Positions 5,925 through 27,891 of a stretch of DNA of 27,891 nucleotides are shown here, one piece after another. The translations under genes were made by a program, and so were the position numbers. How positions within the stretch are numbered: the stretch's first letter is position 1; the number at the start of each line of letters is the position of its first letter. The notes under the pieces are model-generated. The model was not told where the DNA came from and made no database searches. It saw nothing but the letters and a program-made list of their open reading frames with translations. Source of the DNA: a virus (Duplodnaviria; Caudoviricetes); IMG/VR virus record IMGVR_UViG_3300024287_000138, positions 1-27,891 of that record; one strand, 5' to 3'.

Positions 5925-5996
5925 TCTGGTCCTTCCCGCCCGCTCCTGCGGGCCATTTTTGTTTTGCTATTTGCTATTTGCTATTGGCTATGCCCC

Positions 5997-10882: not shown

Positions 10883-10883
10883 T

Positions 10884-12077: not shown

Positions 12078-12111
12078 CGATTCAACCATTTAACGATTTA
12101 ACCCTTTTAAC

Positions 12112-12729
12112 GTGCGCAGCGTACTGATTTTCGTCCCCGGCATCCTGACCTTCCCCGGTTCCGGCAAGAACTGGTCCGGACGCGCCGTCTCCTGGACCCA
12201 CAACCATTCCGGTGCTTGCGCCGAAAAGGTCGAATACTTCTGCGGCCCCATCGGACGCGCCTTCGGCCAGGTCGAACGCACCCGCAAACTCTTTCACACC
12301 ATCGACCAATACCGCGACGACTGGAAAATCACCCTCGTCGGCCACAGCAACGGCGCCGCCGTCATCCTCGGCCTCCTCGACTATCCCTGCCCGATCATCC
12401 ACTCCCTGCACCTCGTTTGCGGCGCCTGCGAATCATCCTTTCACGCCAACGGCCTCAACGCTCGTCTCCAGCACAACGCCATCGGCCACGTCTCCGTCTA
12501 TGTCGCCGCCAAAGACCTCGCCCTCGCCCTGGCCCACTCCTGGGCCGGCCGCCTCCTCGGCTACGGCACACTCGGCCTCCACGGCCCGCGCCACGTCTCC
12601 CCCATGGTTGCCAGCCGCGTCAAGACCATCACCTGGCCCGAGTTCGGCCATTCCGACTGCTGGTCCGACGACTTCCTCGACGAAACCCTCCAAAACTTTC
12701 TCCCACCCATCCGCCACTTCTCCGCATGA
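12112..12729 (+). CDS. Alpha/beta hydrolase
   Basis: IFVPGI oxyanion strand, GHSNG nucleophile elbow, KDLAL Asp, and GHSD His. Confidence 0.85.
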   Translation: MRSVLIFVPGILTFPGSGKNWSGRAVSWTHNHSGACAEKVEYFCGPIGRAFGQVERTRKLFHTIDQYRDDWKITLVGHSNGAAVILGLLDYPCPIIHSLHLVCGACESSFHANGLNARLQHNAIGHVSVYVAAKDLALALAHSWAGRLLGYGTLGLHGPRHVSPMVASRVKTITWPEFGHSDCWSDDFLDETLQNFLPPIRHFSA

Positions 12730-14246
12730 AACGCTATCTCCTATTGGCCATTCCTATCGCCTGTCTGGCCCTCTGCCTCGGCTTCGGAAACCTTCCTCCG
12801 TCTCCGCTGCCTCATCCGATTCTTCTTTCCCCAAAATCCCAGGAACAAAGCCTCAGCCTCGGCTCCCCCATGGCTCGCCCCTCGGCCCTCTCACCTCTCA
12901 CCTCTGCCCCTCCTCCCTCTCCCCTCGCCCTTCCCTCGGGCTTCCGCTTCACCGATAGCTTTTGCGCCGGCGGCCGTCTCAATCTCGCCTGGCAACAAGG
13001 CGACCCTCCCTTCCAGCTCCAATGCGCAAGCATCTTCTCCCCAAACAACTGGACAAACATCGGCGGCCCCATCCTCAACCGCTACGCCGCCATCTCCTTG
13101 ACTGGCAACGGCGGCCTCTCCGGTAACGCCTTCTTCCGCGTTCAATCCTCCGTCAGCCCCATTCTAGGAATCGGAACCTTCAATTCGCCGGAGAAGATCA
13201 TGGTCATGACCAATGGCACCTACGTATATCCGTACTCGGACGGCAGTTTCGCCCGGCTCGGAGTATGGACAAGCCTCACCGATTTCGTCGCCATCACCGT
13301 TCCCGGCTTCAGTGCCTTCCGCAATCCGACCTGCACGGTAGTGGGCGACAGGGTCATCATCGCCGACTCGACGATCAACGGCACCAACCGGCTCGCTGAA
13401 TACCAGCTCTCGGGCACTAACCTGACCACGGTGACGAATTTCGGCTTCGGCACGGCCAGCGGAACCGCCGCCTGCACGGTGAATGGTACCGCATTTGTCT
13501 TCTCGTTTCGGCCGAGCACCACCAATCATGTCTTTTTCACCTCCGTGATGCGCCAGGCCAACGGGACTTACAATGTCTCGGCGGAGTTCGACGAGGACTC
13601 GAGCACCGGGCAGACGCTATCCACGTTGATGACTGCCGTCGGCTACCACGGCTTGGCCTGGCTGTTCAATGTCGAGGATGGCGGCCAGTGCGTGAGCGTG
13701 AGCCAGTTCACGACCACCAATACGCTGCTCTTTTTCAAGCCGAATTTCATTTCCAGCGCCTCGGATCTCGGCCCTTCGGGAGAACTTCCCATCCCGACCT
13801 CGACCGTGGACACTTCAAACGACCGAATTCTCCTGGGATACGCAAGTTACCCCGAAGATATGACTTGCTGCGTAGGAGAAGGAGACTTCGACTGCAGTAT
13901 CGCCGGGCGCTCGTCCATCGTAAGCCTAACGGCAACCAATGATTTGAACGTTCAGAATAACGTCACTCTGTTGGGGACAACACCCTGGTGGGGATGGCAC
14001 TCCGATTATCCGCTCGTGAGCATGTTTCCACGATCGAGCAAAGTCGATACGGTAACGGAGAATGTGGTCATCGCCGGTTGCGATCGGAGCCAGATCGAGT
14101 TTCAGTTGGGCACATTTCAAGGAGGCATCTGCACCGGTGGCGCCGTGGTAGTTCAAGGCGCCAACGTGGACGTCGCCGGCTTTTCGTCCGACGGCTGGAT
14201 CGTCTATCGCTCAGCCGATCTCAAATACCGCCTCGCCAAATTCTGA
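12726..14246 (+). CDS. Large secreted beta-rich protein
   Basis: Start ATG 12726 (ATGA overlap); signal MKRYLLLAIPIACLALCLGFG; Pro/Ser linker; Thr/Ser/Gly/Asn-rich beta-strand body. Confidence 0.75.
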   Translation: MKRYLLLAIPIACLALCLGFGNLPPSPLPHPILLSPKSQEQSLSLGSPMARPSALSPLTSAPPPSPLALPSGFRFTDSFCAGGRLNLAWQQGDPPFQLQCASIFSPNNWTNIGGPILNRYAAISLTGNGGLSGNAFFRVQSSVSPILGIGTFNSPEKIMVMTNGTYVYPYSDGSFARLGVWTSLTDFVAITVPGFSAFRNPTCTVVGDRVIIADSTINGTNRLAEYQLSGTNLTTVTNFGFGTASGTAACTVNGTAFVFSFRPSTTNHVFFTSVMRQANGTYNVSAEFDEDSSTGQTLSTLMTAVGYHGLAWLFNVEDGGQCVSVSQFTTTNTLLFFKPNFISSASDLGPSGELPIPTSTVDTSNDRILLGYASYPEDMTCCVGEGDFDCSIAGRSSIVSLTATNDLNVQNNVTLLGTTPWWGWHSDYPLVSMFPRSSKVDTVTENVVIAGCDRSQIEFQLGTFQGGICTGGAVVVQGANVDVAGFSSDGWIVYRSADLKYRLAKF

Positions 14247-14248
14247 CC

Positions 14249-14677
14249 ATGCCCAAATTATTTTTCCTTCTCTCTGCGTTCTCTGCGTTCTTTGCGGTTA
14301 ATTCCTTCTCCGCATCGCCTCCCCTCCGCGATTTCCTCTCCCAACCGCGCTCCTTCCGTTGCGACTGGTGTGGCCTGGCCCAAACCAACCCGCCGATCGC
14401 CTGGTCCAGCTCCGGCGGCGCCGCCGATCGCCAGGACTTCACCCTCCAGCTCCGTTGCACCTGCGGCGTCACCAACAACCTTTCCATCATCCGCCACGTC
14501 CCGCCCGGCTCCGCCCGCGTCTCAGCCTTTCCTCTCGGACCCGGACCGCGGCTGTGGCGCAGCCCAGCCGCAGCGCATTCGTCTCAAAAAACCAAACTTC
14601 GTTCTCCCAAGATGAGCGAACTCTCATTCTTCCCTCGCACCTCTCACCTCGCACCTCTCACCTCGGCCCGTGGATAA
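14249..14677 (+). CDS. Small exported protein with CxxC...CxC
   Basis: Start ATG 14249; signal peptide MPKLFFLLSAFSAFFAVNSFSA; CDWC and CTC motifs. Confidence 0.6.
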   Translation: MPKLFFLLSAFSAFFAVNSFSASPPLRDFLSQPRSFRCDWCGLAQTNPPIAWSSSGGAADRQDFTLQLRCTCGVTNNLSIIRHVPPGSARVSAFPLGPGPRLWRSPAAAHSSQKTKLRSPKMSELSFFPRTSHLAPLTSARG

Positions 14678-15113
14678 ACTCGTCTCCATCAACATCGCCG
14701 GCTGGCTCGCCTGCCTTCTCTTCGTCATCGGCCTTGCCAACGGCCTCTTCAAGCTTCGCCGCTACCTCATCGGCGAACCGCCCGCTCCCTCCAACCCCGA
14801 GCTCGGCCTCACCCAGCGCGATCTCCGCGAACGCGTCGATACCCTCGAAGAAAACGTCGAAGCCGTCCGCGCCCAGACCGCCCGCGAACGCGAAGCCGAC
14901 CGCGTCTCCGCCACCGCCCGCTCCGCCGGCATCTACAAGAAAATCGACGAAGTCTCCGATCGCATGAATCAGAAAGTCGATAGCGTCGAACGCCGCCTCA
15001 CCGATGCCCAGCAACAGATGGAACGCCGACTCATCGACAAACATGAGCTCCTGCCCCAGAAAATCCTCGAACTCTTCGAGAATGTCTCCCGCCACCGATC
15101 CCATGAATCCTGA
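14670..15113 (+). CDS. Single-TM coiled-coil protein (Mu gp25-like position)
   Basis: N-terminal TM helix then a heptad-rich coiled coil; upstream of the gp26/gp27-like genes. Confidence 0.75.
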   Translation: MDKLVSINIAGWLACLLFVIGLANGLFKLRRYLIGEPPAPSNPELGLTQRDLRERVDTLEENVEAVRAQTAREREADRVSATARSAGIYKKIDEVSDRMNQKVDSVERRLTDAQQQMERRLIDKHELLPQKILELFENVSRHRSHES

Positions 15114-15537
15114 CCGCCCTAGCCATTTCAAAGTCCTCGTCGTCGACGACGACTCCGACTTCTGCGCCCTCATCAAGCGCGCCCTCGTCGCCGGCGGCTC
15201 CCACGTCGAAACCGTTTTCACCGCCGCCGATGCCGAAGCCAAATTCGTTCCGCCCTACGACCTCGTCATTCTCGACCTCAAACTCCCTGACAAACCCGGC
15301 CTCGAGGTCCTCCACCACATCCGCAAATTCTCCACCTCGCTGCCCGTCCTCATCGTCAGCGGCAGTTACAAATCTCCGGCGCTGCCCTTGGACCCCGCCA
15401 CTTTCTTTAGCGACAAACTCACCAACATCGACGCCCTCACCCGCGTCATTAACAACCACATCGAAAAACTCAAAACCTCGCACGACGCTCCCGATCCTCG
15501 TCCCTCGCCCCTCACACCTCTCACCTGTATCGCATGA
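15103..15537 (+). CDS. Stand-alone CheY-like response regulator receiver protein
   Basis: KVLVVDDD, YDLVILDLKLPDKPGLEVL, PVLIVSG, and a conserved Lys (SDKL); no output domain. Confidence 0.9.
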   Translation: MNPDRPSHFKVLVVDDDSDFCALIKRALVAGGSHVETVFTAADAEAKFVPPYDLVILDLKLPDKPGLEVLHHIRKFSTSLPVLIVSGSYKSPALPLDPATFFSDKLTNIDALTRVINNHIEKLKTSHDAPDPRPSPLTPLTCIA

Positions 15538-15791
15538 CCGACTCCCAAAAACTCCGCCACGAATGCCTGCTCTACCTCTACGGCTCCCGTCCGCTGGCCA
15601 TCTCCGCCGACCACATCCACCGCTCCAGCCGGCGCGATGGCGGCACTGACTTCGCCATTGCCGAGATCCGTGCCGAACTCGTTTTCCTCCTCGACGAAGG
15701 CCTCGTCGTCAAAATCACCGACACCGCCACCGGCGAGATCCGCTACCGCATCACCTCCAAAGGCTGCAACCACTGGGAAAACCGCGAATGA
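15534..15791 (+). CDS. Mu gp26-like winged-helix protein
   Basis: LRHECLLYL...EIRAELVFLLDEGLV...YRITSKG; directly before the gp27-like gene. Confidence 0.7.
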   Translation: MTDSQKLRHECLLYLYGSRPLAISADHIHRSSRRDGGTDFAIAEIRAELVFLLDEGLVVKITDTATGEIRYRITSKGCNHWENRE

Positions 15792-15976
15792 CTTGGGCCT
15801 CTGCCATTTGCTATTTGCTATCCGCTATTGGCTATTCCGCGGCGCGCCCTCTGCGCTCTTTGCGTTCTGCACCCCGAACACTTTCTGGGCTGCGGTTAAT
15901 TTCCGGTTCCGTCCTATCCCTCTCTGCGCTCTTCGCGTCTCTGCGGTTAAATCCTTTCCGTTCCCATGCGTCGTAG
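15788..15976 (+). other. Repeat-built linker mini-ORF (62 aa)
   Basis: ATGA overlap with the upstream stop; composed of TTTGCTA 7-mers and two family-A repeats; stop lies 11 nt into the next gene. Confidence 0.6.
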
Positions 15977-16541
15977 AACCGGCAAAATCGCCACCCTCCC
16001 CAAAGTCCTGCGCGACCAGGTCAACGCCATGCTCCGCGACGGCATCTCCTACGCGCGCATCGAACTCTGGCTCACCGAACAGGGTCATCCCGGCGTCAAC
16101 TCCGAAAACATCTCCCACTGGTACAAAGGCTCCGGCGCTCCCGAAGACGGCTCCGGCTATCAGGACTGGCTCAACGACCAGGTCCGCCTCGACGACCTCC
16201 GCATCAAACGCGAAGCCGCCATGGACTTCGTCAAACAAACCCAAGGCTCCGACCTCCAGGAAGCCGCCCTCCAGCTCGCCGCCTCCCACGCCTACGAAAT
16301 TTTCCTCGAAGTCGATCCCAAGGACGTCGCCGCCAGGTTCAAGGAAAACCCGGAACTGATCGCCCCGCTCGTCAACGCCACCGCCCGCGGCTTCGGCGAG
16401 AGCCTCAAATTCCAGCGCTACCGCGACGACGTCCAGCGCCGCAAAGAAACCATCCAGCGCGAACTCGACCAGGCCAAAGGTAAAGGCGGCATCACCCCCG
16501 AAACCCTCCACCGCATCGAACAGGAACTGAACTTACTATGA
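15966..16541 (+). CDS. Mu gp27-like protein (DUF3486; probable terminase small subunit)
   Basis: RRRTGKIATLPKVLRDQVNAMLRDGISY N-terminus and GITPETLHRIEQELNLL C-terminus; precedes the terminase large subunit. Confidence 0.8.
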   Translation: MRRRTGKIATLPKVLRDQVNAMLRDGISYARIELWLTEQGHPGVNSENISHWYKGSGAPEDGSGYQDWLNDQVRLDDLRIKREAAMDFVKQTQGSDLQEAALQLAASHAYEIFLEVDPKDVAARFKENPELIAPLVNATARGFGESLKFQRYRDDVQRRKETIQRELDQAKGKGGITPETLHRIEQELNLL

Positions 16542-16600
16542 TCTTTTCCTCCTCTGCGTTCTCTGCGTTCTCTGCGGTTAATTCCTTCTTCCCCGAGTGA
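16538..16600 (+). other. Repeat-built linker mini-ORF (MIFSSSAFSAFSAVNSFFPE)
   Basis: ATGA overlap with the gp27-like stop and GTGA overlap with the terminase start; contains a perfect family-A repeat at 16552-16581. Confidence 0.65.
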
Positions 16601-17994
16601 GCCCTCTCTCCAACAAATTCTTCTACGCCTCCCAGCGCGCCTGGATCACCGACGACGCCCCTTTGACAATCTGCGAGAAAGGCCGCCAGCTCGGCTTCTC
16701 CTATGCCCACTCCTACAAAGTCGTCCGCCGTGCCGCCAAAGCCGGCGCCAAAGACGAATGGGTCATGTCCCGCGACGAGATCCAGGCCAAACAATTCATC
16801 CTCTACACCAAGCGCTGGGCCAACGTCCTCAAATACGCCGCCCAGGATCTCGGCGAACAAGTCTTCACCTCCGATTCCGGCAAACAAATCTGCGTCCAGG
16901 TCCTCCGCCTCGCCTCCGGCGCATCCATCTATGCACTTTCGTCCAACCCGGACGCCATCGTAGGAAAAACCGGCCACGTCACACTCGACGAATTCGCCCT
17001 GCACAAAAACCAGCGCGAACTCTACGCCGTCGCCAAACCCGTCACCCAATGGGGCGGCACACTCTCAATCATCAGCACTCATCGCGGCATCGGCACACTC
17101 TTCAACGAAATCATCCAAAAGATAAAGTCCGCCCCGTCTGACCCGTCCGACCCATCCTATCAGTCCGACTCCGCCAAATTTGCCCGCTCCTGGTCCCTCC
17201 ACTCCGTCCCCGTCCAAAAAGCCGTCGAAGAAGGCCTCGTCGAAAAGATCGACCAGGTCGCCGGCCGAAAGTCCGACACGTCCGAAAAGTCCGACCAGTC
17301 CGACCGCCGCCAGGCCTGGTTACAGCAAATCCGCGCCGAATGCATCGACGAAGAACAATGGTTGCAAGAGTATTGCTGCATCCCTGCAGACGAAGCCTCC
17401 GCCTTCCTTTCCTACGACCTCATCAGCTCCTGCGAAGACCCGGCCGCCATCCGCGACTTCAACTACCTGCTCGACGCCAAAAACCCCCTATACGTCGGCG
17501 TCGATGTTGCCCGCAAAAAAGACCTCTTCGTCATCGACGTCGGCGAACTCCAGGGCGACGTCCTCTGGGACCGCTTCCGCCTCGAGCTCCAGAACAAAAA
17601 GTTCGGCGAGCTCGAGTACGAACTCCACCGCATCCTCACCTTGCCCCAGGTCAAACGCGCCTGCATCGACGCCACCGGCATGGGCATGCAACTCGCTGAA
17701 CGCGCCAAAGACCGCTTCGGCTACCGCGTCGAACCAATCACCTTCACCCCGTCAGCCAAAGAAGAGCTCGCCTTCGGCCTCCGCGCCGCCTTCGAGGACC
17801 GCCGCCTCCGCATCGCGCGCGACGACAAACTCCGCGCCGACCTCCGCGGCATCAAAAAAGAAGTCACACTCTCCGGCAACATCCGGTTCGTCGGCGAATC
17901 CGACGACTCCCACTGCGACCGTTTCTGGGCCAAAGCCCTCCGCCACCACGCCTATCAGCTCCGTGCCGTCACTTTCTCCAGCGCCCTGATATGA
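16597..17994 (+). CDS. terL: Terminase large subunit (Mu gp28-like)
   Basis: EKGRQLGFS Walker A-like, VTLDEFA Walker B, IISTH, nuclease motifs YVGVDVARKKD, IDATGMG and HCDRFWA. Confidence 0.95.
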   Translation: MSPLSNKFFYASQRAWITDDAPLTICEKGRQLGFSYAHSYKVVRRAAKAGAKDEWVMSRDEIQAKQFILYTKRWANVLKYAAQDLGEQVFTSDSGKQICVQVLRLASGASIYALSSNPDAIVGKTGHVTLDEFALHKNQRELYAVAKPVTQWGGTLSIISTHRGIGTLFNEIIQKIKSAPSDPSDPSYQSDSAKFARSWSLHSVPVQKAVEEGLVEKIDQVAGRKSDTSEKSDQSDRRQAWLQQIRAECIDEEQWLQEYCCIPADEASAFLSYDLISSCEDPAAIRDFNYLLDAKNPLYVGVDVARKKDLFVIDVGELQGDVLWDRFRLELQNKKFGELEYELHRILTLPQVKRACIDATGMGMQLAERAKDRFGYRVEPITFTPSAKEELAFGLRAAFEDRRLRIARDDKLRADLRGIKKEVTLSGNIRFVGESDDSHCDRFWAKALRHHAYQLRAVTFSSALI

Positions 17995-18428
17995 TTTTCC
18001 CAGTTTTTATTTTCCTCTCTGCGCTCTCTGCGTTCTCTGCGGTTAAATCCTTCTACCCTTTACCGCCCATGTCGTCTGGTCCCGCGTGGGCGGCCCCGGC
18101 CGGCGGCAGTGCCTCCCCCCATCCCCACTGCCGTCCGGCCTCCCCTTTTGCTATTTGCTATTTGCTACCTGCTCGCGATTTATCGGAGTTCGCTATTCCC
18201 CCTTCGCGCCCTTTGCGTGAGACCCTGCTTTCTCTAATTCTACCTTCCCCAGGACCACGCCTTAATTGCCCCAGGACGTTTTCCGGCCTGTCAACCCCCG
18301 TCCGCTCGACAAAAGCTTGTACGCAATGCGCTCCTGGCTCACTGCAATGCGCTCCCGTGCCTCTCGTAGCTCGTCCCTCGCACCTCTCCCCTCTCACCTC
18401 ATCCCCCGGAGGTCCCGATGCCCGCTAA
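17991..18428 (+). other. Repeat-mosaic linker ORF (145 aa) spanning the terL-portal gap
   Basis: ATGA overlap with the terL stop; ends 11 nt into the portal gene; contains family A (18017-18046), TTTGCTA (18147-18195) and CCTCTCA-type (18362-18400) repeats. Confidence 0.5.
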
Positions 18429-20712
18429 ATCATCCTTCCTCTCCCGCCTCGGCCAGGCCGCCTCCTACGTCCTCCGCGGCCAGGGCGTTCCCGCCTTCTG
18501 GTTCGCCCGCGCCATCGAAATCGGCTCCCAGGAAGTTCTCGACCGCCCCTATGCCTCCTCCGCCTGGGTCCAGGCCGCCATTGCCAAGATCGCCGGCCCC
18601 GTCGCCTCCGTCCAACCCTGCTTCTTCCCTCCCGACCGGGAACTCGCCGGCCTCAAACAACCCTTGCCGCGCTCAAAACGCTTCCACCGCTCCGGCCGGC
18701 TCGTCCGCCGTTCTCTCGACGAAGAAATCTCCATCCCCGGCATGGACGCCTTCCTCCGCTCACCCATCGACGGCCTCGGCTATTCCGACTTCGTCGAAGC
18801 CTCCATTGGCTGGCTCAAGCTCGCCGGCGAAACCTTCTGGCTCATCGACGACCAGGCCATGGTCCCTTTCCCTGCTCAGCGCAAAGGCCCGCTCCCTCAA
18901 ATCATCGTCGCCAGGCCCGACCGCATGAAACATATCGTCGAGAACGGCGAGCTCGTCGGATGGCAATATCGCGACGGCCAAAACAAACCCTACAACCTCC
19001 AGCCTGACCAGGTCATCCAGCTCAAATACTGGAACCCCTACGACCGCTGGCGCGGCCTCAGCAAATACGAATCCGCTCTCATCGCCGCCGAAGGCGACTG
19101 GCTCGCCGGCAAGTTCAAACGCAACCTCATGGCCAACAACGGCGATACCGGCCCCTACATCATCGCCAAAAACGGCATCCCCACTGACCCACAGCGCGAG
19201 CAAATTCTCAACGACCTCAAAGCCAAACGCGCCGCCCAGCAACGTGGCGATTTCCGGCCCATCTTCCTCACCGGCGACATCTCCGTCGAAGACCCAAAGG
19301 TCCGCACCGTCGATGCCGCCTACATCGCCGGCCGCACCGAGGACCACCACGAAATCTTCGTCGCCTTCGACGTTCCCCCTTCCCTCGCCGACGTCAAAGC
19401 CGCCTACTCCATCGGTTCCGCCTCCGACTTCTACCAGCTCATCACCACCGGCTGCATTCCCATTGGCGAAAAATTCGCCGACGGCCTCGAGCGCCTCACC
19501 CTCAAACTTACCGGCCAGGCCGTCGAGATCCTCCTCGACTGGGACGAACACCCCGTCATGCAGGAAGTCCGCAAAGAACGCCTCGATTCCGTCGATAAGC
19601 TCTGGACCAAGGGCATGCCCATGGAACAAATCTCCGACTACCTCGGCCTCGAACTCCCCGAATTCCTGGGCTGGGACGTCGGCTATCTCCCCTTCAGCGT
19701 CGCGCCCGTCTCCTCCGCCGAATCTCAGCAACCCGCCGTTCCTCCATCCCAGGATCAGGATCTCAGCGAAATGCCCTCCGCCGGCGAACCTTCATCTCCT
19801 ATCGGCGAAATGCTCGCCGCCCTCCGCCGCCGTCCGTCCGACCCGTCCGACCCGTCCGACTCTTCCGATCCGCACCCGCGCCAGCGCTCCCCCAAAAATC
19901 TCGCCCTGTGGGAATCCCACATGCGCAAACGCGCCCCATCGATCAAAGCACTCCGCTCCAAATCCGCCCGCGTCATCAACGATTGGCGCGTCTCCACCCT
20001 TCGCAAATTCGAATCCTACGCCTCAGCCCACAAATCAAAAACCGCCGCAGATGGAAACTCCTCTGCGCTCTCTGCGTTCTCTGCGGTTAATAAATCTCTA
20101 ATCGACTTCCTTTTCGACGCCGCACACTCCGGCAAAGAATTCTTCCTCCAAATCTCCCCTGTCCTCCAATCCGTCGTCCAGACCGCCGGCGACCAGCTCA
20201 ATGAAGAAATCGGCATTGACGATCCCTGGAAATATCCACCCGCCAAATCCATCGAATTCATCGCCTCACGCAAAGGCGCTCTCCAGGGCGTCGCTGACAC
20301 CGCCCGCGACCAGCTCAACACCGCCATCCAAAACGGCCTCAAAGAAGGCAAGACCATGGACCAGCTCGCCGACGACATCCGTGGCGTCTTCAATAACCTC
20401 GGCCGCTACGAAGCCGACCGCATCGCCCGCACCGAAACCACTGTCGCCTATGGTTTCGCTCGCGATGCCGCCATGCGCGACGCCGGCGTAGAATTCAAAT
20501 CCTGGCTCAGCTCCCACGGCCCCAACGTCCGTCCCGACCACGCCGATGCCGAGGTCGAATACGAAGCCAGCCCCATTCCTCTCGACGACCCCTTCATCGT
20601 CGGCGGCGAAGAACTCATGTATCCCGGCGACCCGGCCGGCAGCCCCGGCAACATCATCAACTGCCAATGCGTCTCCGGCCCCGTCCTCGCCGAGGAAAAG
20701 GAGCAATCATGA
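18418..20712 (+). CDS. HK97-type portal protein fused to a MuF (SPP1 gp7-like) head morphogenesis domain
   Basis: Portal motifs WVQAAIAKIA, LKLAGETFW, ARPDRMK, NPYDRWRGLS, FDVPPSL; MuF motifs ADRIARTET, KSWLS...VRPDH, LMYPGDP...NIINCQC. Confidence 0.9.
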   Translation: MPAKSSFLSRLGQAASYVLRGQGVPAFWFARAIEIGSQEVLDRPYASSAWVQAAIAKIAGPVASVQPCFFPPDRELAGLKQPLPRSKRFHRSGRLVRRSLDEEISIPGMDAFLRSPIDGLGYSDFVEASIGWLKLAGETFWLIDDQAMVPFPAQRKGPLPQIIVARPDRMKHIVENGELVGWQYRDGQNKPYNLQPDQVIQLKYWNPYDRWRGLSKYESALIAAEGDWLAGKFKRNLMANNGDTGPYIIAKNGIPTDPQREQILNDLKAKRAAQQRGDFRPIFLTGDISVEDPKVRTVDAAYIAGRTEDHHEIFVAFDVPPSLADVKAAYSIGSASDFYQLITTGCIPIGEKFADGLERLTLKLTGQAVEILLDWDEHPVMQEVRKERLDSVDKLWTKGMPMEQISDYLGLELPEFLGWDVGYLPFSVAPVSSAESQQPAVPPSQDQDLSEMPSAGEPSSPIGEMLAALRRRPSDPSDPSDSSDPHPRQRSPKNLALWESHMRKRAPSIKALRSKSARVINDWRVSTLRKFESYASAHKSKTAADGNSSALSAFSAVNKSLIDFLFDAAHSGKEFFLQISPVLQSVVQTAGDQLNEEIGIDDPWKYPPAKSIEFIASRKGALQGVADTARDQLNTAIQNGLKEGKTMDQLADDIRGVFNNLGRYEADRIARTETTVAYGFARDAAMRDAGVEFKSWLSSHGPNVRPDHADAEVEYEASPIPLDDPFIVGGEELMYPGDPAGSPGNIINCQCVSGPVLAEEKEQS

Positions 20713-20762
20713 TCCTCTCTCTGCGTTCTCTGCGTTCTCTGCGGTTAATTCCTTTCTTGTGA
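20709..20762 (+). other. Repeat-built linker mini-ORF (MILSLRSLRSLRLIPFL)
   Basis: ATGA overlap with the portal stop and GTGA overlap with the next ORF; family-A repeat inside. Confidence 0.6.
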
Positions 20763-20947
20763 ACCAGCGCCGCCTCAAACAAAAACTTCCGCGCTCCTGG
20801 ACAATTTCCCGCTCCGGCCGCGATCTCCACGTCACCACCGACCAGGGCGCCGTCTTCCGCGTCAACAAAGACGCCCGCTGGACCGAAGAAGACCTCGCCC
20901 TTTACCTCAAATCCAAAATCCCCATCCAAATCCATCGCCATGATTAA
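20759..20947 (+). CDS. Small hypothetical protein
   Basis: GTG start, 62 aa, C-ending codon usage like other late genes; overlaps the protease start by 8 nt. Confidence 0.6.
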   Translation: MNQRRLKQKLPRSWTISRSGRDLHVTTDQGAVFRVNKDARWTEEDLALYLKSKIPIQIHRHD

Positions 20948-21617
20948 GCGCACCCTCCATCCAGAAGTCCGCATCCTAGACGAAAAACTCGGCCTCGCCT
21001 CCTATATCGCCTCCGACGAATCCATCGACTCCTACAAAGAAGTCATCCGCGCCGATGGCTGGCGCTTCGATCACTTCCAGAAAAATTCCCCCTTCGTCGA
21101 TTCCCACAACTACGGCACCATCGCCCGGCTCGTCGGCAAAGTCGTCGATTTCCAGGTCAAAGGCCGCGAGCTTCACGAAACCGTCCAATGGGCCATCGAC
21201 GTCCCCGAAAACGATCTCGCCCGCATCGGCTGGTCCATGACCAGGGGCGGCTACCTCAAAGCCGTCTCCGTCGGCTTCTTCCCCGAAAAACTCGTCTCTG
21301 TCTATGACCGCGACCTCGGCCCCTATCGCGACGAGCTCAAAGCTCTCCACTACGAAGAAGGCAAATCCGCCCCGCGCGTCGTCTATCAGCAGCAACAGCA
21401 AATCGAGCTCTCCGCCTGCATCGTCGGCGCCAACCCCAATGCCCTCGCCAAATCCTACAAACTCGGCCTCTTGACAGATGCCGACCTTGATTTACTATCG
21501 TCCCAACAGCGTGAATACGCTTCTTCGGCTGTAGATGCCGCTGTCGCCGAAGAAGCCCGTCAGCGGACTCGCCTCTCGTTTCTCGATAGTTTCGCTCGCG
21601 CACTCAAAGCGCTTTAG
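20940..21617 (+). CDS. HK97-type prohead protease
   Basis: ASDESIDSYKEVI, FVDSH (His), GYLKAVSVGF (Ser), and IELSACIVGANPNA. Confidence 0.9.
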   Translation: MIKRTLHPEVRILDEKLGLASYIASDESIDSYKEVIRADGWRFDHFQKNSPFVDSHNYGTIARLVGKVVDFQVKGRELHETVQWAIDVPENDLARIGWSMTRGGYLKAVSVGFFPEKLVSVYDRDLGPYRDELKALHYEEGKSAPRVVYQQQQQIELSACIVGANPNALAKSYKLGLLTDADLDLLSSQQREYASSAVDAAVAEEARQRTRLSFLDSFARALKAL

Positions 21618-21663
21618 TTCAGTTCCCAACCATCAACTCAAACTCATTCTCTCCATCAACTCT

Positions 21664-23019
21664 ATGAATCCACTTCCTGAAACCGACTTCCAGCAAACCG
21701 TCCTCCGCGGCGTCGAGTCCCTCCAGACCGAACAAAAAGCCCACAAGACCCGCATCGACGAAGTCTATGCCAACTTCGATCGCACCGATAAAGAGGTCAA
21801 AAAAGTCACCGACGAACTCACCGTCGCCAAAAACAAAATGAACGAGACCTGGGAGGCGACCATGAAACGGATCGAAAAGGTCCAGCAAGCCGTCGCCCGC
21901 AATGTCCGCTCCTCCTGGCGTGACCCCATCGAACAGCTTCTCGATAGCAACGAGGAAACTCGTTTCTACCTCAATGCTCTTGCTCGTTATTGCAATGGCC
22001 TGAAGGACGGAACCGTCAATCGGTTATCCGGCGAAATGCGAAAAGTCGTCGAGGAAGGCACCGCCTCCTTCAAAGCCCTCACCGGCGTCGATTCCTCCCT
22101 CGGACAGGCCACCGTTCCTACCCAGACCTTCAACGAGATTTATGATCTCTTGCTCGAGTACGGCGATTGGTCCGGCCTCGGCGTTCAGCGCGTCGGCGCT
22201 CGCACCACCGTCCTGCCCGTCGGAACCGCCCGCCCGCAATTCTACTGGATCGGCTCGGGCACCGGTGGCACTGGCGAAGGTTCGGCCATTACCGAAGGCG
22301 CTTTCACCGGCTCCTCTGTCAGCCTCATCATCCAAACCCTGGCCGCCTATCTTCTGGTCGCGCGCGAGCTCCTGGCAGATTCCACCGTTGACCTGGCTCC
22401 CTACATCCTCCGCGAGATGGTCCAGGCCGTCGCCTTCGGTCTCGATACCGCCGCTTTCATCAGCGCCGGCGTTGCCAACCAGACCGATGCCGGCTACTAC
22501 GGCATCTTCAAGGCCGACTCCGTCAACGCCAACCTCGCCGCGGGCGCGGCCGCCGGCGGCACCAAAGTCTCCAAGCTCCTCCTGGACGACTTCGTCAACT
22601 GCCTCACCACCGTTTCGCCCATCGTCCTCAAGCGCAAACCCAAGTGGTGGATGCATCCCCAGGTCCTCGCCAGCATCGCCCTCATCCGCGACACTGTCGG
22701 TCGCCCCATCTTCCAGACCTGGCAGGAAGTCCCCAGCGGCACTCTAGCCTCCATCCTCGGCTATCCCGTCGTTTCCACCGCCGTCGCGCCCACTGCCGCC
22801 CTCACCACCATCAGCTCTCCGGCCGCCGTGTTCGGCGACCCCATGGGCCAGGCCGTCGGCATCCGCTCCGACCTCGAGCTCGCCACCTCCGACGACATCA
22901 AGTTCGCCGAAAACATGCGCGCCTATCGCACTCTCATCCGCGCCGGCGTCAAACTCAAAACCGCCACCGCCAGCATAACCCTCAAACCCTTCGCCGTCCT
23001 CAAAACCGCTGCCGCCTAA
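21664..23019 (+). CDS. HK97-fold major capsid protein with N-terminal coiled-coil (delta) domain
   Basis: Start ATG 21664; coiled-coil N-terminus, ATVPTQTFNEI, RELLADS, WWMHP, RDTVGRPIF, ILGYPVV, VFGD. Confidence 0.93.
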   Translation: MNPLPETDFQQTVLRGVESLQTEQKAHKTRIDEVYANFDRTDKEVKKVTDELTVAKNKMNETWEATMKRIEKVQQAVARNVRSSWRDPIEQLLDSNEETRFYLNALARYCNGLKDGTVNRLSGEMRKVVEEGTASFKALTGVDSSLGQATVPTQTFNEIYDLLLEYGDWSGLGVQRVGARTTVLPVGTARPQFYWIGSGTGGTGEGSAITEGAFTGSSVSLIIQTLAAYLLVARELLADSTVDLAPYILREMVQAVAFGLDTAAFISAGVANQTDAGYYGIFKADSVNANLAAGAAAGGTKVSKLLLDDFVNCLTTVSPIVLKRKPKWWMHPQVLASIALIRDTVGRPIFQTWQEVPSGTLASILGYPVVSTAVAPTAALTTISSPAAVFGDPMGQAVGIRSDLELATSDDIKFAENMRAYRTLIRAGVKLKTATASITLKPFAVLKTAAA

Positions 23020-23028
23020 CCCTAAATT

Positions 23029-23075
23029 CCTCTCCCCGCCTTCTCCCATCCCATGGGAGATGGCCGGGGTTGAGG
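23029..23075 (+). terminator. GC-rich hairpin after the capsid gene (terminator/RNA stabiliser or REP-like palindrome)
   Basis: TCTCCCAT-ccc-ATGGGAGA core with an extended outer stem; no clear U-tract. Confidence 0.4.
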
Positions 23076-23117
23076 GCTTCAACTATCAACTCATCAAACT
23101 ATCAACTCTCAACACCA

Positions 23118-23558
23118 ATGAAAAAACTCCTCCTCTCTGCGTTCTGCGCGTTCTCTGCGGTTATTCCCGCTTACTCCCAACTCTACGACACCTCCCAGCT
23201 CGTCAACAACATCGCCATCGCCTCCGGTGGCTCTTCCAACGTCGCTGCCGTCGTCGGCTGCACCCGCTACGACGAGTTCGCCCTCCAGATCAACTTCAAG
23301 CTCATGGCCTCCGGCACCGACCCCGTCACCTTCACCTGGTGTACTTCCAATGACGGCGTCACCTACTGCACCACCGGTTCAGGCCAGGGCACATTCACCG
23401 TCGCCGCTAATGGCACCACGCCCGTCGTTTTCACCACCAACATGGTCATGAACTCCGTCGGCTACTTCCAAATCAGTTCCATCGCCGGCAGTACCAACGC
23501 CATCACCACCAACCTCACCGTCAACGCCTTCTTCAAACCCAGAAAGCGCGGTCCATAA
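23118..23558 (+). CDS. Beta-rich protein with apparent signal peptide in head-decoration position
   Basis: Start ATG 23118; MKKLLLSAFCAFSAVIPAYS-Q; beta-sandwich-like body with a TSNDGVTY motif. Confidence 0.75.
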   Translation: MKKLLLSAFCAFSAVIPAYSQLYDTSQLVNNIAIASGGSSNVAAVVGCTRYDEFALQINFKLMASGTDPVTFTWCTSNDGVTYCTTGSGQGTFTVAANGTTPVVFTTNMVMNSVGYFQISSIAGSTNAITTNLTVNAFFKPRKRGP

Positions 23559-23569
23559 TCTGAGGAACC

Positions 23570-23612
23570 AGGTCCGGCGGCGGTTTTCCTCCTTTTTCCC
23601 GCCGCCGGGCCT
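23570..23612 (+). terminator. 14-bp hairpin with pyrimidine loop
   Basis: AGGTCCGGCGGCGG / CCGCCGCCGGGCCT immediately after the 23558 stop. Confidence 0.4.
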
Positions 23613-23659
23613 TCTCCTCAACTATCAACTCTCCAACACCATCAACCATCAACTAACCA

Positions 23660-23872
23660 ATGAGCCGCACCTTCAAAGACGCCAAAGACCGCATGGTCCA
23701 TTCCGACGCTACCGAAACCCGCTCCTCGTCCCTCGCCCCTCGTCCCTCTCGCCTCCGTAACTGGGGCTACTGCCAGACCTGCGGCGGCTTCATCCGCCGA
23801 CTCGGCAAATCCTGGGAGCATGATGGCCAGCGCCCGAACCATCCCGCGAAGCCGCTACCTTTCGAAGAATAA
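23660..23872 (+). CDS. Small hypothetical protein (CxxC...H...H)
   Basis: 70 aa; ATG follows a CAACTAT/CAACCAT repeat; in-frame 7-mer repeat at 23724-23752. Confidence 0.5.
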   Translation: MSRTFKDAKDRMVHSDATETRSSSLAPRPSRLRNWGYCQTCGGFIRRLGKSWEHDGQRPNHPAKPLPFEE

Positions 23873-23944
23873 CTCCCACCTCGCAACCTCGATGAACTCT
23901 GTTTCCCATTTCAGGTTTCAGCTTTCAGGTTTCAGCTTTTCCCC

Positions 23945-24604
23945 ATGATCGCCGGCCTCACCAACCTCGACACCCTCAAAAAAGCTATCCTGCCCTCCTC
24001 CATGGCGGCAGAGACCAAATTCGATCTCATGCTCCAGGTCGTCGGCCTCGGCGTCGCCGGCCTCTTCGATTCTTTCTGCAATCGCCGTCTCGCCTGGCAG
24101 GCCGCCGATAACATCGTCTTCTCTGGCGATCGCCCGCATTACTACCTCCCGCGCTTTCCCATCTCCGGCATCACCAAGATCGAAATGCGCTATTTCCAGA
24201 CCGACTCCTGGACCGAGATCACCGGTCAACCCATCTCCGTCAATTACGAAAACGGCCTCGTCCATTTCGGCTACACCCTCGGCCGCAACCCACTCGTCGT
24301 CCGCGCCACCTGGGACGGCGGCTACTGGTTCGAGACCCTCGAACCCGATGACGCCGCCTATCCAAGCACTTCGCCCGCCGTCACCGATCCCCTGGCCCTC
24401 GCCAATGGCGGCTCCGTTGCTCCGCTCCCCGGCGTCCTACGCGCCGCCTTCCTTCTTCAATGCGAAGCCGTCTGGGCCGCCCGCGACAAACTCGGTCTCG
24501 GTCTCACCGACAAACCCGGCGAACAATCCGGTATCACCAAACTCGATCTGTCGCCCCTCATCAAAACCATGCTCCAGCCCTTCATCCGCTATCAGCTCTC
24601 ATGA
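23945..24604 (+). CDS. Head-tail connector/adaptor (gp6-like)
   Basis: LTNLDTLK...FDSFCNRRL, YLPRFPI, VRATWDGGY, LPGVLRAAFL, IKTMLQPF; position after the capsid genes. Confidence 0.8.
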   Translation: MIAGLTNLDTLKKAILPSSMAAETKFDLMLQVVGLGVAGLFDSFCNRRLAWQAADNIVFSGDRPHYYLPRFPISGITKIEMRYFQTDSWTEITGQPISVNYENGLVHFGYTLGRNPLVVRATWDGGYWFETLEPDDAAYPSTSPAVTDPLALANGGSVAPLPGVLRAAFLLQCEAVWAARDKLGLGLTDKPGEQSGITKLDLSPLIKTMLQPFIRYQLS

Positions 24605-24697
24605 AGTCACCCCTTAGAGGCCCCGAGCCGTGTCAGACTGGTCCTACTGGTCTGACACGTCCGAGCCTTCAGCTTTCAGATTTCAGATTTTCCTAGC

Positions 24698-25210
24698 ATG
24701 CAGCTCAAAATCCAACTAACTCCCGAAGCCCAGGCGACTCTCCGCGCCGTCCAACGTCTGCCCCAGACCGCCCTCGTCGAAATCGCCAAAGCCATGGACC
24801 GCCAGAACGTCGCCACCGTCTTCCACATCCAGCGCGAATATCTCAGCTTTCCAAAGGACCAACCTCCGGTCGAAATGGGCCTGCGCCACGTCTCCGGCCG
24901 ATTGAAGAACTCTATCCACCCCAGCAAAGCCGAAGTCTCCGGCCAGAGCGTCACCGGCGCCATCGGTTCCAACGTCGTTTACGCCGCCATCCACGAATTC
25001 GGCGGCCACACCTCTCCCCACGACATCTATCCCAAAAACAAAGTCGCCCTCAAATTCCAGCTCGGCGAACGCACTGTCTTCGCCAAAGTCGTCCATCATC
25101 CCGGCTCCGAGATCCCCGCCCGCGCTCCCATCCAGCACGGCATCCAGGACCGCCTCGACAACTACTCCAAGGCCATCTCCGACGCCATCATCAACGCCCT
25201 CAACCAATGA
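24698..25210 (+). CDS. Virion morphogenesis/neck protein (Mu gpG / HK97 gp10-like)
   Basis: SGRLKNSI, GSNVVYAAIHEFGG, VHHPG.EIPARAPI motifs. Confidence 0.85.
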   Translation: MQLKIQLTPEAQATLRAVQRLPQTALVEIAKAMDRQNVATVFHIQREYLSFPKDQPPVEMGLRHVSGRLKNSIHPSKAEVSGQSVTGAIGSNVVYAAIHEFGGHTSPHDIYPKNKVALKFQLGERTVFAKVVHHPGSEIPARAPIQHGIQDRLDNYSKAISDAIINALNQ

Positions 25211-25262
25211 CTGACTATCTTTCCGATTTCAGCTTTCAGGTTTCAGGTTTCAGCTTTTCCCC

Positions 25263-26075
25263 ATGACCAGCTCCCTCGAAATCATCGACCGTCTCCCCTA
25301 CGAGCTCGCCGCGCGCCTCGAGGCCGATCCTTTCTTCATCGACATCCCCGTCGTCGTCTTCGAGGAAGGCAACCTCAAAGCCGAGATGGACCGTAAGCAA
25401 GCCCTGGTCACGACCAAGACCGGCCGCCGCGGCGTCGCCGTCATCGTCCTCCAGGTCGTCGCCGACGACCTCTATCCCGACGTCATGTTCAATCCCTTGC
25501 TATTGCACCCCGCCTTCCAGGTCGTCGAACTCGTCGAACTCAATCGCGACCCCAACGGCACCGGCAAATCCGCCCGCAAAGTCGCCCGCCGGATCCGCGA
25601 CCTCCTCAAAATCTTCGGCATGTATGGCGTCGCCAAAACCATGATTGCCGACGAACCCTGCATCGAACCCGTCAAACTCGCCGACGAACTCGGCAAATCC
25701 GTCAAAGCCTATCAGGTCAATTTCCGCTGCCTCGAGGACCACGACGAGCTCCTCAACCAATGCCTCCGCCCCACCTTCCAGGTCACCGGCGCCACCCTCG
25801 AGCTCCTGTCCGAAACTGCGGACGCCGAGATCTATTACACCATCGAAGGCGACCCCGCCGAATGCATCGGCTCCAAGACCTATCCCTCGAAGCAAAACCC
25901 TCTCGCCCATCTCTACAACACCGCGCTCCCGATCCCCGACGCCGGCTTCATCATCCGCGCTTGCGCCTATCCCGCCGGCACAACCAACGCCGGCAACGGC
26001 GGCGAACCCATCGATCCCGACTTGCTAAGCACCACCGCCTCCTGGGTCACCCGCGCCGAAATCTTCCCCTCATGA
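25263..26075 (+). CDS. Putative tail-completion protein with C-terminal Fn3-associated/chitobiase-type Ig-like domain
   Basis: Position between the neck and tail-tube genes; C-terminal PTF...LELLSETADAEIYYTIEG.P...Y...IRACAY pattern. Confidence 0.6.
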   Translation: MTSSLEIIDRLPYELAARLEADPFFIDIPVVVFEEGNLKAEMDRKQALVTTKTGRRGVAVIVLQVVADDLYPDVMFNPLLLHPAFQVVELVELNRDPNGTGKSARKVARRIRDLLKIFGMYGVAKTMIADEPCIEPVKLADELGKSVKAYQVNFRCLEDHDELLNQCLRPTFQVTGATLELLSETADAEIYYTIEGDPAECIGSKTYPSKQNPLAHLYNTALPIPDAGFIIRACAYPAGTTNAGNGGEPIDPDLLSTTASWVTRAEIFPS

Positions 26076-26278
26076 GAACAACCGCTCTTCCTCCGTCTCT
26101 GCGTTCTCTGCGTTCTGCACCCCGAAGACTTTCGGGGCTGCGGTTAATTCCTGCTTTTTCTGCTCCGTCTCTGTGCCTCCGTGCCTCTGTGGTTAAAACT
26201 CCGTCTCTGCGTTCTCTGCGTTCTCTGCGGTTAATTTCTGGTCCCGCTCTCAACTCTCAACCATCAACCATCAACTAA
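26072..26278 (+). other. Repeat-built linker mini-ORF (68 aa)
   Basis: ATGA overlap upstream; three family-A-type arrays plus CTCTCAA/CCATCAA 7-mers; stop 3 nt before the next ATG. Confidence 0.6.
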
Positions 26279-26281
26279 TCT

Positions 26282-27235
26282 ATGGCTAACATCGTCCTTC
26301 CCATCATCATCCAGGGCCCGGCCTTCATCTCCATCGCCGGCACCGTCCTCTACACCGAGCGCGACATCTCCGTCGAACAAAACACCGACGCCTGGAACCC
26401 CGAGTCCGCCTACGGCCCCCTGGGCCAGCGCCACAAATCCCGCAAGGACGTCCTCATCTTCAAACCCGTCGGCATGATAACCGCCGGCCTGCTCAATTTC
26501 TTCTACGCCGCCCACCTCACGCCCACCTCCATCGGCACATCGATCTTCACCGGCTCAGGCGTCGTCTTTGTCTCCTCGATCTCCGAAAACAAAACCTACA
26601 CCTGGCGCCGCGGCGGCATCTCCAAACCTCCCGGCCTGGCCGCCAAACCCACCTCTACTCTCTTCGGCTCCATGTCTGTCACCTGCATCGGTGCGCCGGC
26701 CGTCCAACCCCTCGACGCGCACTTCTGGCTCGCCGCCGAAGCTGCCGCCACCGCCGACACCACCTTCGACCAGACCAAAATCATCTCCGACATCTACAGC
26801 GCCGCCCTGGGCTCCCGCGGCGCTCCCTACAACGCCATGGGCGGCATCGAAGGCTTCGATATCGACTTCGGTTTCGAAACCGTGGACGTCCCCGCCTCCG
26901 ACCTCGGCTTTGCCGACATCATCCTCCGCGGCCTGTCCATCACAGCCAGCTTCCGTCCCTCCAACCTCACCGAGACCCAGGTCAACACCCTCGTCCGCCT
27001 CCAGGACACCACCGCCGTCCTCCCTGGCCAACCCTACGCCAAAGAACTCGAAGACCTCGTCATCACCGGCACCCAAATCGGCTGGGTCTTCACCCTCAAA
27101 GCCGTCGGCGCAAAACGCGCCGGCAAGATCTACCAGGTCGGTGTCCATCGCCATAACAACATCGAATTCGTCAACCAACGCACCTGGACCGCCGGCGTCC
27201 CCAATGCCCTCTTCGCCTACACCGCCCCCTCATGA
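26282..27235 (+). CDS. Putative major tail (tube) protein
   Basis: 317 aa, beta-rich; IIQGPAFI N-terminus; position after the tail-completion gene. Assignment is positional. Confidence 0.6.
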   Translation: MANIVLPIIIQGPAFISIAGTVLYTERDISVEQNTDAWNPESAYGPLGQRHKSRKDVLIFKPVGMITAGLLNFFYAAHLTPTSIGTSIFTGSGVVFVSSISENKTYTWRRGGISKPPGLAAKPTSTLFGSMSVTCIGAPAVQPLDAHFWLAAEAAATADTTFDQTKIISDIYSAALGSRGAPYNAMGGIEGFDIDFGFETVDVPASDLGFADIILRGLSITASFRPSNLTETQVNTLVRLQDTTAVLPGQPYAKELEDLVITGTQIGWVFTLKAVGAKRAGKIYQVGVHRHNNIEFVNQRTWTAGVPNALFAYTAPS

Positions 27236-27313
27236 ATTCTTTTCTTACTCTATCTCTGCCTCTGCCTCTGCCTCTGATTTCAGCTTTCAGCTTTCAGCTT
27301 TCAGCTTTTCTAT

Positions 27314-27715
27314 ATGTCTGACCGCGGCACATGGAAAATCCTCATCGGCGGCGCCACCCTCCTCGACTACGCCAACGTCGCCAACCCACGCGACAACGAC
27401 GGCGGCCCCGTCATCCAGCAGGAAGCACTCTTCCGCGCCCCCTCCCTCACCTTCCTCCAGCGCGCAAACTTCGGTCTGCACCTCGTCTTCGACATCACCA
27501 TCCTGCAGGCCAACAACGCCGACGCCATGGCTTTCTTCCTCACCGCGCCCCAGACCTGGTCCGGCGTCAACGACGTCGCCCTCACCCACAAAGATCACAC
27601 CGGCGCCGAGACCACAAAAAACCTCACCGCCGCCTCCGTCCGACTCAAATGCTCGCCCCCGATCGGCGTCACCAACCTCGCCACCCTAACCATCACCGGC
27701 GGCCTTATCGCCTGA
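27314..27715 (+). CDS. Hypothetical tail-region protein
   Basis: 133 aa, beta-rich, late-gene codon usage. Confidence 0.7.
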   Translation: MSDRGTWKILIGGATLLDYANVANPRDNDGGPVIQQEALFRAPSLTFLQRANFGLHLVFDITILQANNADAMAFFLTAPQTWSGVNDVALTHKDHTGAETTKNLTAASVRLKCSPPIGVTNLATLTITGGLIA

Positions 27716-27891
27716 TTACCCAACCTATGAAACCCCCTTGCAATCCCCCTTCAACTCCGCCTCCGTCTCTGCGTTCTTTGCGTTCTCTGCGGTTAAATCT
27801 TTTCCGTTCCCCATCCGTTCAATCCGTGCAATCCGTGGTTAAAAAGTCCCTTCTCTGCGTTCTCTGCGTTCTCTGCGGTTATTCCTCTAGA

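Follow-up and report, generated by a model that had tools for sequence, protein, structure and literature searches.

The window analysed here is a single contig of 27,891 nucleotides (nt) from a Caudoviricetes virus (IMG/VR record IMGVR_UViG_3300024287_000138) that ends before the distal tail genes. Pfam and PHROG profile matches place a transposase (phrog_310) and a transposition ATPase (phrog_296) among its early genes, on the minus strand, and Mu Gp27/terS, terL, a portal-MuF fusion, a protease-like gene, a capsid gene, and a Neck1/tail S gene among its late genes, on the plus strand. The transposase and ATPase thus accompany Mu-type head genes, and transposase, ATPase, Gp27, MuF, and tail S stand in the order expected of Mu-like transposable phages; the window differs from these in its heavy load of repeats in one orientation and its GC skew of -0.28, an outlier among relatives. 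Given this gene content and the hosts of its terL relatives (45 genome loci, mostly in metagenome-assembled genomes of Verrucomicrobiota or Limisphaerales), we take the phage to be Mu-like and its host phylum to be probably Verrucomicrobiota. HTJ (the 219-amino-acid [aa] gene), t270 (270 aa), MTP (317 aa, putative major tail protein), and the 146-aa gene are working labels from position, with no family match, and tailS denotes the tail-completion/Neck1 gene. Our subject is a set of eight short open reading frames (ORFs), here called linkers, that run from the stop codon of one late gene to the start codon of the next across repeat-filled spacers.

The linkers had been proposed in a first-pass annotation of the sequence, and rereading the frames confirmed all eight at the positions in Table 1: each is open throughout, and each ATG overlaps the upstream TGA (ATGA). 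Relative to the next start codon, linkers 1–8 stop at +10, +3, +10, +3, -2, +3, -4, and +7, with matching intergenic distances of -11, -4, -11, -4, +1, -4, +3, and -8. Seven of the eight downstream starts are the sole ATG, GTG, or TTG between the previous in-frame stop and 60 nt inside the gene; the start at 20759 has an in-frame ATG 213 nt upstream, within the portal gene. All the downstream starts agree with the N-termini of homologues. Two related cases described in the same annotation also hold, a mini-ORF at 23892–23948 that ends in ATGA and an ORF from 27727 whose end cannot be judged because it is open to the window edge, as does its observation that one repeat is read in different frames: a 9-mer module occurs in all three (SAFSAFSAV, LRSLRSLRL, and LCVLCVLCG).

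Among the 13 late plus-strand junctions with a spacer of at least 20 nt, eight are bridged, exactly those with ATGA. The five unbridged ones, absent from the first-pass annotation, lie between the 11400 gene and the hydrolase-like gene, between the protease and major capsid protein (MCP) genes, and at MCP–23118, 23118–23660, and 23660–23945. That annotation had called for a comparison with shuffled spacers, and bridging exceeds the controls: dinucleotide shuffles predict 3.4 bridges when spacer length is kept constant (P = 2.5e-5) and 1.6 when the phase is random (P = 6.5e-7). The range accepted as a bridge (-5 to +10) was set after the data had been seen; with a looser ±20 nt the values are P = 2.5e-4 and 1.3e-5, respectively, so that P is 2.5e-4 or lower for every null. 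At the rate of the linkers' own off-frames, their 383 internal codons would be expected to hold about eight stops. In trials with indels of 1–2 nt, the bridge was lost every time in seven linkers and kept in 21% of trials in linker 7 (these trials and the early fixed-length shuffles used 12 junctions, without that at 11400–12112). The linker pattern is confirmed as real and well above chance.

Table 1. Linkers, spacers, and other features of the late region, with positions in the window
Feature	Position	Strand	Remarks
Mu-like head and tail gene run holding the linkers	15966..27715	+	Pfam and PHROG matches
Linker 1 (62 aa), 85-aa gene (15534-15791) to terS	15788..15976	+	TTTGCTA 7-mers, 9-mer modules; ATGA start; 11-nt end overlap
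Linker 2 (20 aa), terS to terL	16538..16600	+	9-mer module; ATGA...GTGA
Linker 3 (145 aa), terL to portal	17991..18428	+	three repeat modules; 11-nt end overlap
Linker 4 (17 aa), portal-MuF fusion to small conserved gene	20709..20762	+	9-mer module; ATGA...GTGA
Conserved gene of ~62 aa, real and not a linker	20759..20947	+	GTG start; homologues in other clusters; G+C at codon position 3 (GC3) 0.72
Unbridged, unstructured spacer before major capsid ATG	21618..21663	+	1 G in 46 nt
Unbridged spacer after major capsid gene	23020..23117	+	hairpin ~23028-23077 (z -4.7), then unstructured TCAACTA tract before ATG
Unbridged spacer after 146-aa gene	23559..23659	+	hairpin ~23561-23620 (z -5.3), then TCAACYA tract before ATG
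Half-linked mini-ORF (18 aa)	23892..23948	+	ends ATGA at HTJ start; begins 19 nt after the stop of 23660-23872
Linker 5 (31 aa), HTJ to tailS	24601..24696	+	hairpin ~24629-24659, TTTCAG 7-mers; stop 1 nt before next ATG
Linker 6 (19 aa), tailS to t270	25207..25266	+	TTTCAG 7-mer module; ATGA...ATGA
Linker 7 (68 aa), t270 to MTP	26072..26278	+	9-, 8-, and 7-mer modules; stop 3 nt before ATG
Linker 8 (29 aa), MTP to 133-aa gene	27232..27321	+	CTCTGC 6-mers, TTTCAGC 7-mers; 8-nt end overlap
ORF across three repeat modules	27727..27891	+	starts 11 nt after 133-aa gene; open to window edge

We compared the junctions with those of relatives at 174 loci, leaving out the window's own contig (L101); together with the window these form 126 clusters at 90% terL identity. 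At three linker junctions the majority of relatives show the direct overlap that the first-pass annotation had suggested looking for: terS–terL (48 of 84, 31 of them at -4), HTJ–tailS (21 of 26), and tailS–t270 (17 of 20). The junction of linker 1 is direct in 4 of 13 relatives, all at -4, and homologues of the small gene after linker 4 start at the portal stop or a few nucleotides away. An RTGA (ATGA or GTGA) is found at the stop in 45 of 89 relatives for terS, 67 of 123 for terL, 26 of 36 for portal, 24 of 47 for HTJ, and 12 of 23 for tailS, and these often-RTGA junctions are bridged in the window, unlike those of the protease (13 of 61), capsid (1 of 52), and 146-aa (0 of 12) genes. The unbridged junctions flank capsid genes that are seldom coupled in relatives. 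The capsid frame of the window is open for 129 nt upstream, to an ATG inside the end of the protease gene (21535–21663) that is probably not the true start. In L004, L010, L015, L018, L019, L044, and L051 the capsid gene seemingly starts soon after the protease stop, apparently with a long hydrophobic, signal-like extension at the N-terminus.

Linkers recur across the family between terL and portal. Of the 80 such junctions that we examined, 13 are direct and two lack a callable start; the other 65 have spacers, 33 of them bridged. After five bridged clusters were dropped as possible real genes (L029, L032, L024, L110, and L106/L107), 28 of 60 spacers are bridged, by linkers of 6–160 aa, including 21 of the 27 whose stop lies in ATGA. 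The portal start is reached by 28 of 49 frames that have a start and by 20 of 114 that lack one (P = 1.2e-6); the criterion for relatives was looser than for the window, admitting any in-frame ATG or GTG within the 150 nt preceding the predicted start. By a comparably lenient rule, and with the five clusters still included, 26 of 43 repeat-free spacers are bridged vs. 4.5 expected from shuffles, and 5 of 18 repeat-bearing ones vs. 0.6. As a control we took the regions of the ribosomal-protein operons in 40 genomes belonging to the same order as G001, out of 57 with an L16 match. Here, frames with a start at the upstream stop reach the next start in 28 of 83 cases, and those without in 316 of 1,244 (odds ratio 1.5, P = 0.12); since these host operons show no enrichment, the method does not create bridging by itself.

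The terL–portal linkers are mostly repeat-free, and blastn joins only a few pairs. Linker 3, besides its repeat modules, has short motifs common to some relatives' spacers, and a Shine-Dalgarno (SD)-like GGAGGT lies ahead of the portal ATG. The window spacer holds GCAATGCGCTC twice (18323 and 18344) and CCCCAGGAC twice (18247 and 18269). Phased pairs of TTAA motifs about 10 bp apart are found in spacers of relatives including L012, L015, L020, L028, L050, and L108; this arrangement occurs in 7 of 65 terL–portal spacers vs. nine matches in 819 kb elsewhere, with no visible copy in the window, and is possibly a late promoter or activator site. A sigma-70 and terminator scan of 10800–27891 returned two promoter-like sites vs. 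2.8 expected and 21 terminator-like sites vs. 15.2 expected. In two of the dropped clusters the terL–portal ORF ends in a helix-turn-helix (HTH)-like domain (L029:11317–11925 and L032:11296–11832); L024 and L110 share DNA with these but encode other C-terminal peptides, a pattern resembling the decay of a gene into a linker.

Linker substitutions look neutral and show no protein-level constraint. In the best-aligned pair (L012/L028), three changes are synonymous and 17 nonsynonymous, compared with 139 and 128 in terL (P = 0.002), and the mismatches number 9, 7, and 11 at the three codon positions. GC3 exceeds the G+C content of the first two codon positions by 0.025 in 26 linkers vs. 0.147 in terL. 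The terL–portal linker ORFs have zero or one homologue in other clusters. Signs of a small gene (homologues and purifying selection) were lacking in the linkers and were found only in the gene at 20759–20947 and in a few ORFs of relatives.

The repeat modules themselves carry no built-in ORF. In the 9-mer module a core of about 30 nt is constant and the flanks vary; at 10 other viral loci with modules we found no stop-to-start linker and one in-frame N-terminal extension (L308). Elsewhere in the window, modules have become in-frame parts of genes, terminal or internal (11400, 14249, 15103, terL, portal, 23118, and 23660). In-frame modules lie within terL, portal, and the transposase gene, at 17127–17305, 19833–19872, 20061–20093, and 6215–6287. 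Where the 9-mer is read as SAFSAFSAV it forms signal-peptide-like N-termini (11400–11520, 14249–14320, and 23118–23170), and the N-terminus of L308 is similarly signal-peptide-like, made from a 7-mer.

Sequences of these kinds also occur outside the phage. The 9-mer module is present in four of five host-group genomes, sometimes as an inverted pair, and in five records of genome_contigs; the exact 7-mer-plus-start module has no match in genome_contigs, and two repeat patterns have none in five host genomes with long contigs. Tandem 7- or 8-mers lie within about 200 nt of PF05635 four-helix-bundle genes in 16 of the 20 loci examined (of 29 matches) but in only one of 20 at 1 kb distance, and 8- or 9-mers adjoin PF13366, which we take to be GxxExxY, in seven of 16 loci and in none of 16 at 1 kb. 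These repeat-flanked genes look like cassette elements; a literature search found no paper on repeats flanking four-helix-bundle and GxxExxY genes. The 7-mer tandem arms of four-helix-bundle genes are often inverted, the arms of the PF13366 (PD-(D/E)XK_3) genes are 8- or 9-mers, and some arm repeats at these host loci (L271–L306) match kinds found in the window. Each repeat family of the window has a single orientation (36 vs. 1 regular-expression matches), in early and late regions alike, and the GC skew is negative in both oppositely transcribed halves, which may reflect a replication-strand bias in module acquisition. Since the orientation is the same in both oppositely transcribed regions, the modules resemble solo arms of host elements inserted regardless of translation, with the linkers as an accommodation.

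The first-pass annotation had remarked that late genes lack obvious SD motifs, and indeed an SD-type 4-mer precedes only one of 20 late starts (portal, GGAGGT), although the C-rich strand makes such motifs rare regardless. Host ribosomal-protein genes use SD motifs weakly (163 of 751 starts vs. a background of 81 of 751) and have A-rich leaders. In E. coli and H. volcanii, coupling is reported to be almost lost once the spacer reaches about 20 nt; the coupling distances used here (-8 to +10) come from the same study (PMC10666635). All eight upstream ends of the linkers (each at -4) and six of the eight downstream ends fall within that range. Because the bridged spacers measure 46–423 nt, coupling of the SD-less packaging and neck genes would be lost if an insert had no bridge. 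We believe it fairly probable that a ribosome ending the upstream gene would reinitiate on the linker, cross the insert, and reinitiate on the downstream gene. Selection likely keeps termination-reinitiation coupling across the inserts, and possibly the linkers also shield C-rich RNA from Rho.

The ancestral junction would on this account have been an RTGA overlap, behind whose ATG host-type short-tandem modules or, between terL and portal, other noncoding DNA came to be inserted. Inserts at coupling-dependent junctions would have survived only when absorbed in frame as an N- or C-terminal extension, or when the frame of the orphaned ATG ran uninterrupted to a stop at the new start. The genes of the capsid region, with their TAA or TAG stops, hairpins, and A/C-rich leaders, would initiate alone and need no linker. 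Linkers would then preserve existing coupling and add no regulation; the earlier suggestion that they tune the stoichiometry of structural proteins found no support in anything tested. Its companion claim, that ribosome continuity is kept and peptide sequence is not, agrees with the shuffles, the overlaps in relatives, the lack of homologues and of a coding-like GC3 excess, and the neutral-looking substitutions, the translation of the linkers being the predicted part.

Several observations weigh against this account. The clusters, formed at 90% terL identity, lack phylogenetic independence; 32 of the 60 terL–portal spacers are unbridged; and none of the three early-operon spacers of at least 20 nt is bridged. 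(An 11-codon mini-ORF on the minus strand there, in the 5927–5956 region, ends in ATGA at the 5924 start and does not reach the transposase stop.) Two linker ends, at -11, lie outside the coupling range given in PMC10666635. Linkers 7 and 8 stand at junctions rarely coupled in relatives (RTGA in 4 of 23 for t270 and 3 of 23 for MTP), and linker 7, given this low count and its tolerance of indels, is the weakest case of the eight. An SD-like 4-mer precedes portal in the window, as it does in 13 of the 33 bridged relatives, so portal could initiate alone. Aligned homologous linker segments keep phase in 10 of 16 cases; this could also reflect weak peptide constraint, and in A/T-rich motifs it may be partly forced by TAA in the other frames. 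Finally, when all junction types in relatives are pooled, bridges cross 11 of 41 spacers with repeats and 55 of 134 without. Bridging is therefore neither obligatory, as the unbridged terL–portal spacers also indicate, nor specific to repeats, and of the earlier claim that coupling is preserved across inserted repeats, the coupling geometry stands while the link to repeats is weaker.

One alternative is compatible with this account: the linkers might be translated chiefly to cover C-rich, G-poor, unstructured inserts against Rho-dependent polarity, with ribosome hand-over secondary. Bridged spacers have C:G ratios of 1.4–3.0 and mostly fold no better than shuffles (the hairpin of linker 5, z -3.9, makes it the only linker that does), Rho RNA-binding domains are present in all five host-group genomes, and overlapping ORFs are reported to suppress Rho termination in M. 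tuberculosis (bioRxiv 10.1101/2022.06.01.494293). However, RNA cover needs no stop within -4 to +10 of the next start, C-richness is no lower in the five unbridged spacers (C:G 2.4–18), and the three shortest linkers span merely 46–55 nt. We regard shielding as an unlikely main role.

A second alternative is that a mobile element duplicates the RTGA junction when it inserts, leaving the ORFs as a by-product with little selection at each site, as in mycobacterial interspersed repetitive units (MIRUs). MIRU insertion duplicates the junction tetranucleotide. An RTGA end is found in three of the eight window linkers and in 26 of 33 bridged terL–portal relatives, and linker 6 and the mini-ORF at 23892–23948 share DNA (family D5, 80% identity) up to the start codon. 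Against duplication, five of the eight linkers lack an RTGA at the 3' end. A copied ATGA bridges only if the two ATGs are 2 mod 3 apart, and all phases occur: three linkers are of this kind, one has phase 0, and four have phase 1. The last four stop at +10, +10, -2, and +7, though a duplicated ATGA would give no stop there; a stop in that frame and range is found at 4.8% of 2,815 interior codons, and a +7 or +10 stop at one of 39 homologous starts that directly overlap their upstream gene. These rare off-phase stops argue against simple junction duplication. The same module is also read in three frames with variable flanks, the 10 other viral module loci gave no stop-to-start linker, and most terL–portal linkers are repeat-free and seldom joined by blastn. 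We consider this origin quite improbable.

The likeness to MIRUs is one of architecture. As summarised in PMC12548453 from Supply et al. (1997), MIRUs are discrete repeat units whose ORF couples to the downstream gene at -4, and ORFs that carry ribosomes across inserts are already proposed. As there, the window has repeat DNA inserted at start codons within operons, but its inserts are mixed tandem modules of 6–9 nt lying in any frame, only three of eight linker ends are at -4 (the others at -11, -11, -8, +1, and +3), and in relatives the same geometry spans repeat-free spacers. With no built-in ORF and no consistent junction duplication, the window inserts are not MIRUs.

Chance, or an assembly artefact, in a stop-poor, C-rich strand is a very improbable and largely refuted source of the linkers. 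The off-frame stop density in late genes is merely 0.008 per codon, short spacers stay open in 53–86% of fixed-length shuffles, and some assembly pieces break at 9-mer modules. Each null tried nevertheless gives a low P value, and bridging recurs in relatives and is not enriched in host ribosomal-protein operons. Over the listed pieces, one of which covers 20725–26120, contigs of run X1 (perhaps the source sample) show no difference from the window, and a wrong 9-mer copy number would leave the phase unchanged. Sequencing runs gave no credible indel within any linker over the late region; apparent insertions within the 7-mer modules are located where contigs of other organisms pile up. A search for close strain variants with altered repeat copy number found none, the nearest relative having 77% terL identity.

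The least probable alternative, and a very remote one, is that the peptides matter and the linkers are genuine small genes or morons, packed by ATGA as phage genes ordinarily are: the gene at 20759–20947 and its homologues are real, L029 has an HTH-like ORF (PF01381, E 8e-4, below the curated cut-off) with a similar one in L032, and ORFs lie between host secY and map, but the window linkers tested have no Pfam, PHROG, or NCBIfam match (three, five, and three of the eight, respectively), for the seven tested no other cluster has a homologue, the frequency of C at third codon positions is 0.11–0.47 (0.30 in linker 1, vs. 0.64–0.67) compared with 0.64–0.72 in real genes, and pooled synonymous changes amount to 19 of 109 changed codons in six pairs. 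The host secY–map ORFs are presumably adenylate-kinase-like.

Preserved termination-reinitiation coupling, the reading we prefer, has several partial parallels. Integron ORF-11, -17, and -18 (attI1) and short ORFs in attC deliver ribosomes to cassettes without an initiation region, and amino-acid changes in ORF-11 have little effect (PMC8876359). The proposed delivery of ribosomes across noncoding DNA is alike; ORF-11, however, has its own SD motif and sits in a recombination site, whereas the window linkers would be fed by an upstream stop. Coupling at ATGA is a second parallel (PMC10666635, PMC12548453, PMC6728339), with -4 at all eight linker starts and genes for subunits of one complex, and its steep distance dependence (PMC10666635) is a reason for a bridge; those studies pair adjacent protein genes, and the window interposes a peptide-less ORF of 17–145 codons. 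TAACTGA heptamers in Beggiatoaceae are likewise short oriented tandem repeats just upstream of SD-less starts, with a suggested translational role, but they have stops in all frames and no bridging ORF is described in the text available (PMC4679880), whereas the window modules are frame-open. A literature search covering few subscription papers found no report of relay ORFs in phage operons, and Rfam has no match in the window.

To what is described for MIRUs, these data add a site-by-site origin, a family-wide repeat-free linker between terL and portal, and a split between bridged and independently initiated virion genes. Tentatively, and with slightly more doubt than belief, we propose that in this family peptide-less relay ORFs form a heritable cis-element, which arises anew at each junction with no mobile element to carry it, reaches 160 codons, and between terL and portal would persist across about 55–77% terL identity despite turnover of its sequence. 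These ORFs and the uncoupled, hairpin-insulated capsid genes would then distinguish the virion genes that must be made by a single handed-on ribosome from those that load ribosomes independently; the phage would offer a natural experiment in termination-reinitiation vs. scanning. The pattern of bridged and unbridged junctions is also a prediction of translational coupling among the virion genes. If translation of the linkers is real, selection would maintain reading frames purely for ribosome traffic, natural variation would back a short-range model of termination-reinitiation, the tolerance of compact SD-poor phage operons to repeat invasion would be explained, and a class of "hypothetical proteins" between terminase and portal would probably not be proteins. 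The surprise is limited, the principle having been proposed for MIRUs and shown for integron short ORFs.

Other genes of the window lie apart from the linkers. On the minus strand are a fragment of a Pol-beta palm/thumb region (1187–1762), an ASCH domain (1759–2166), and a region weakly similar to the C-terminal portion of DnaA (3846–4211), and a lone response-regulator receiver lies within the late operon (15103–15537, plus strand).

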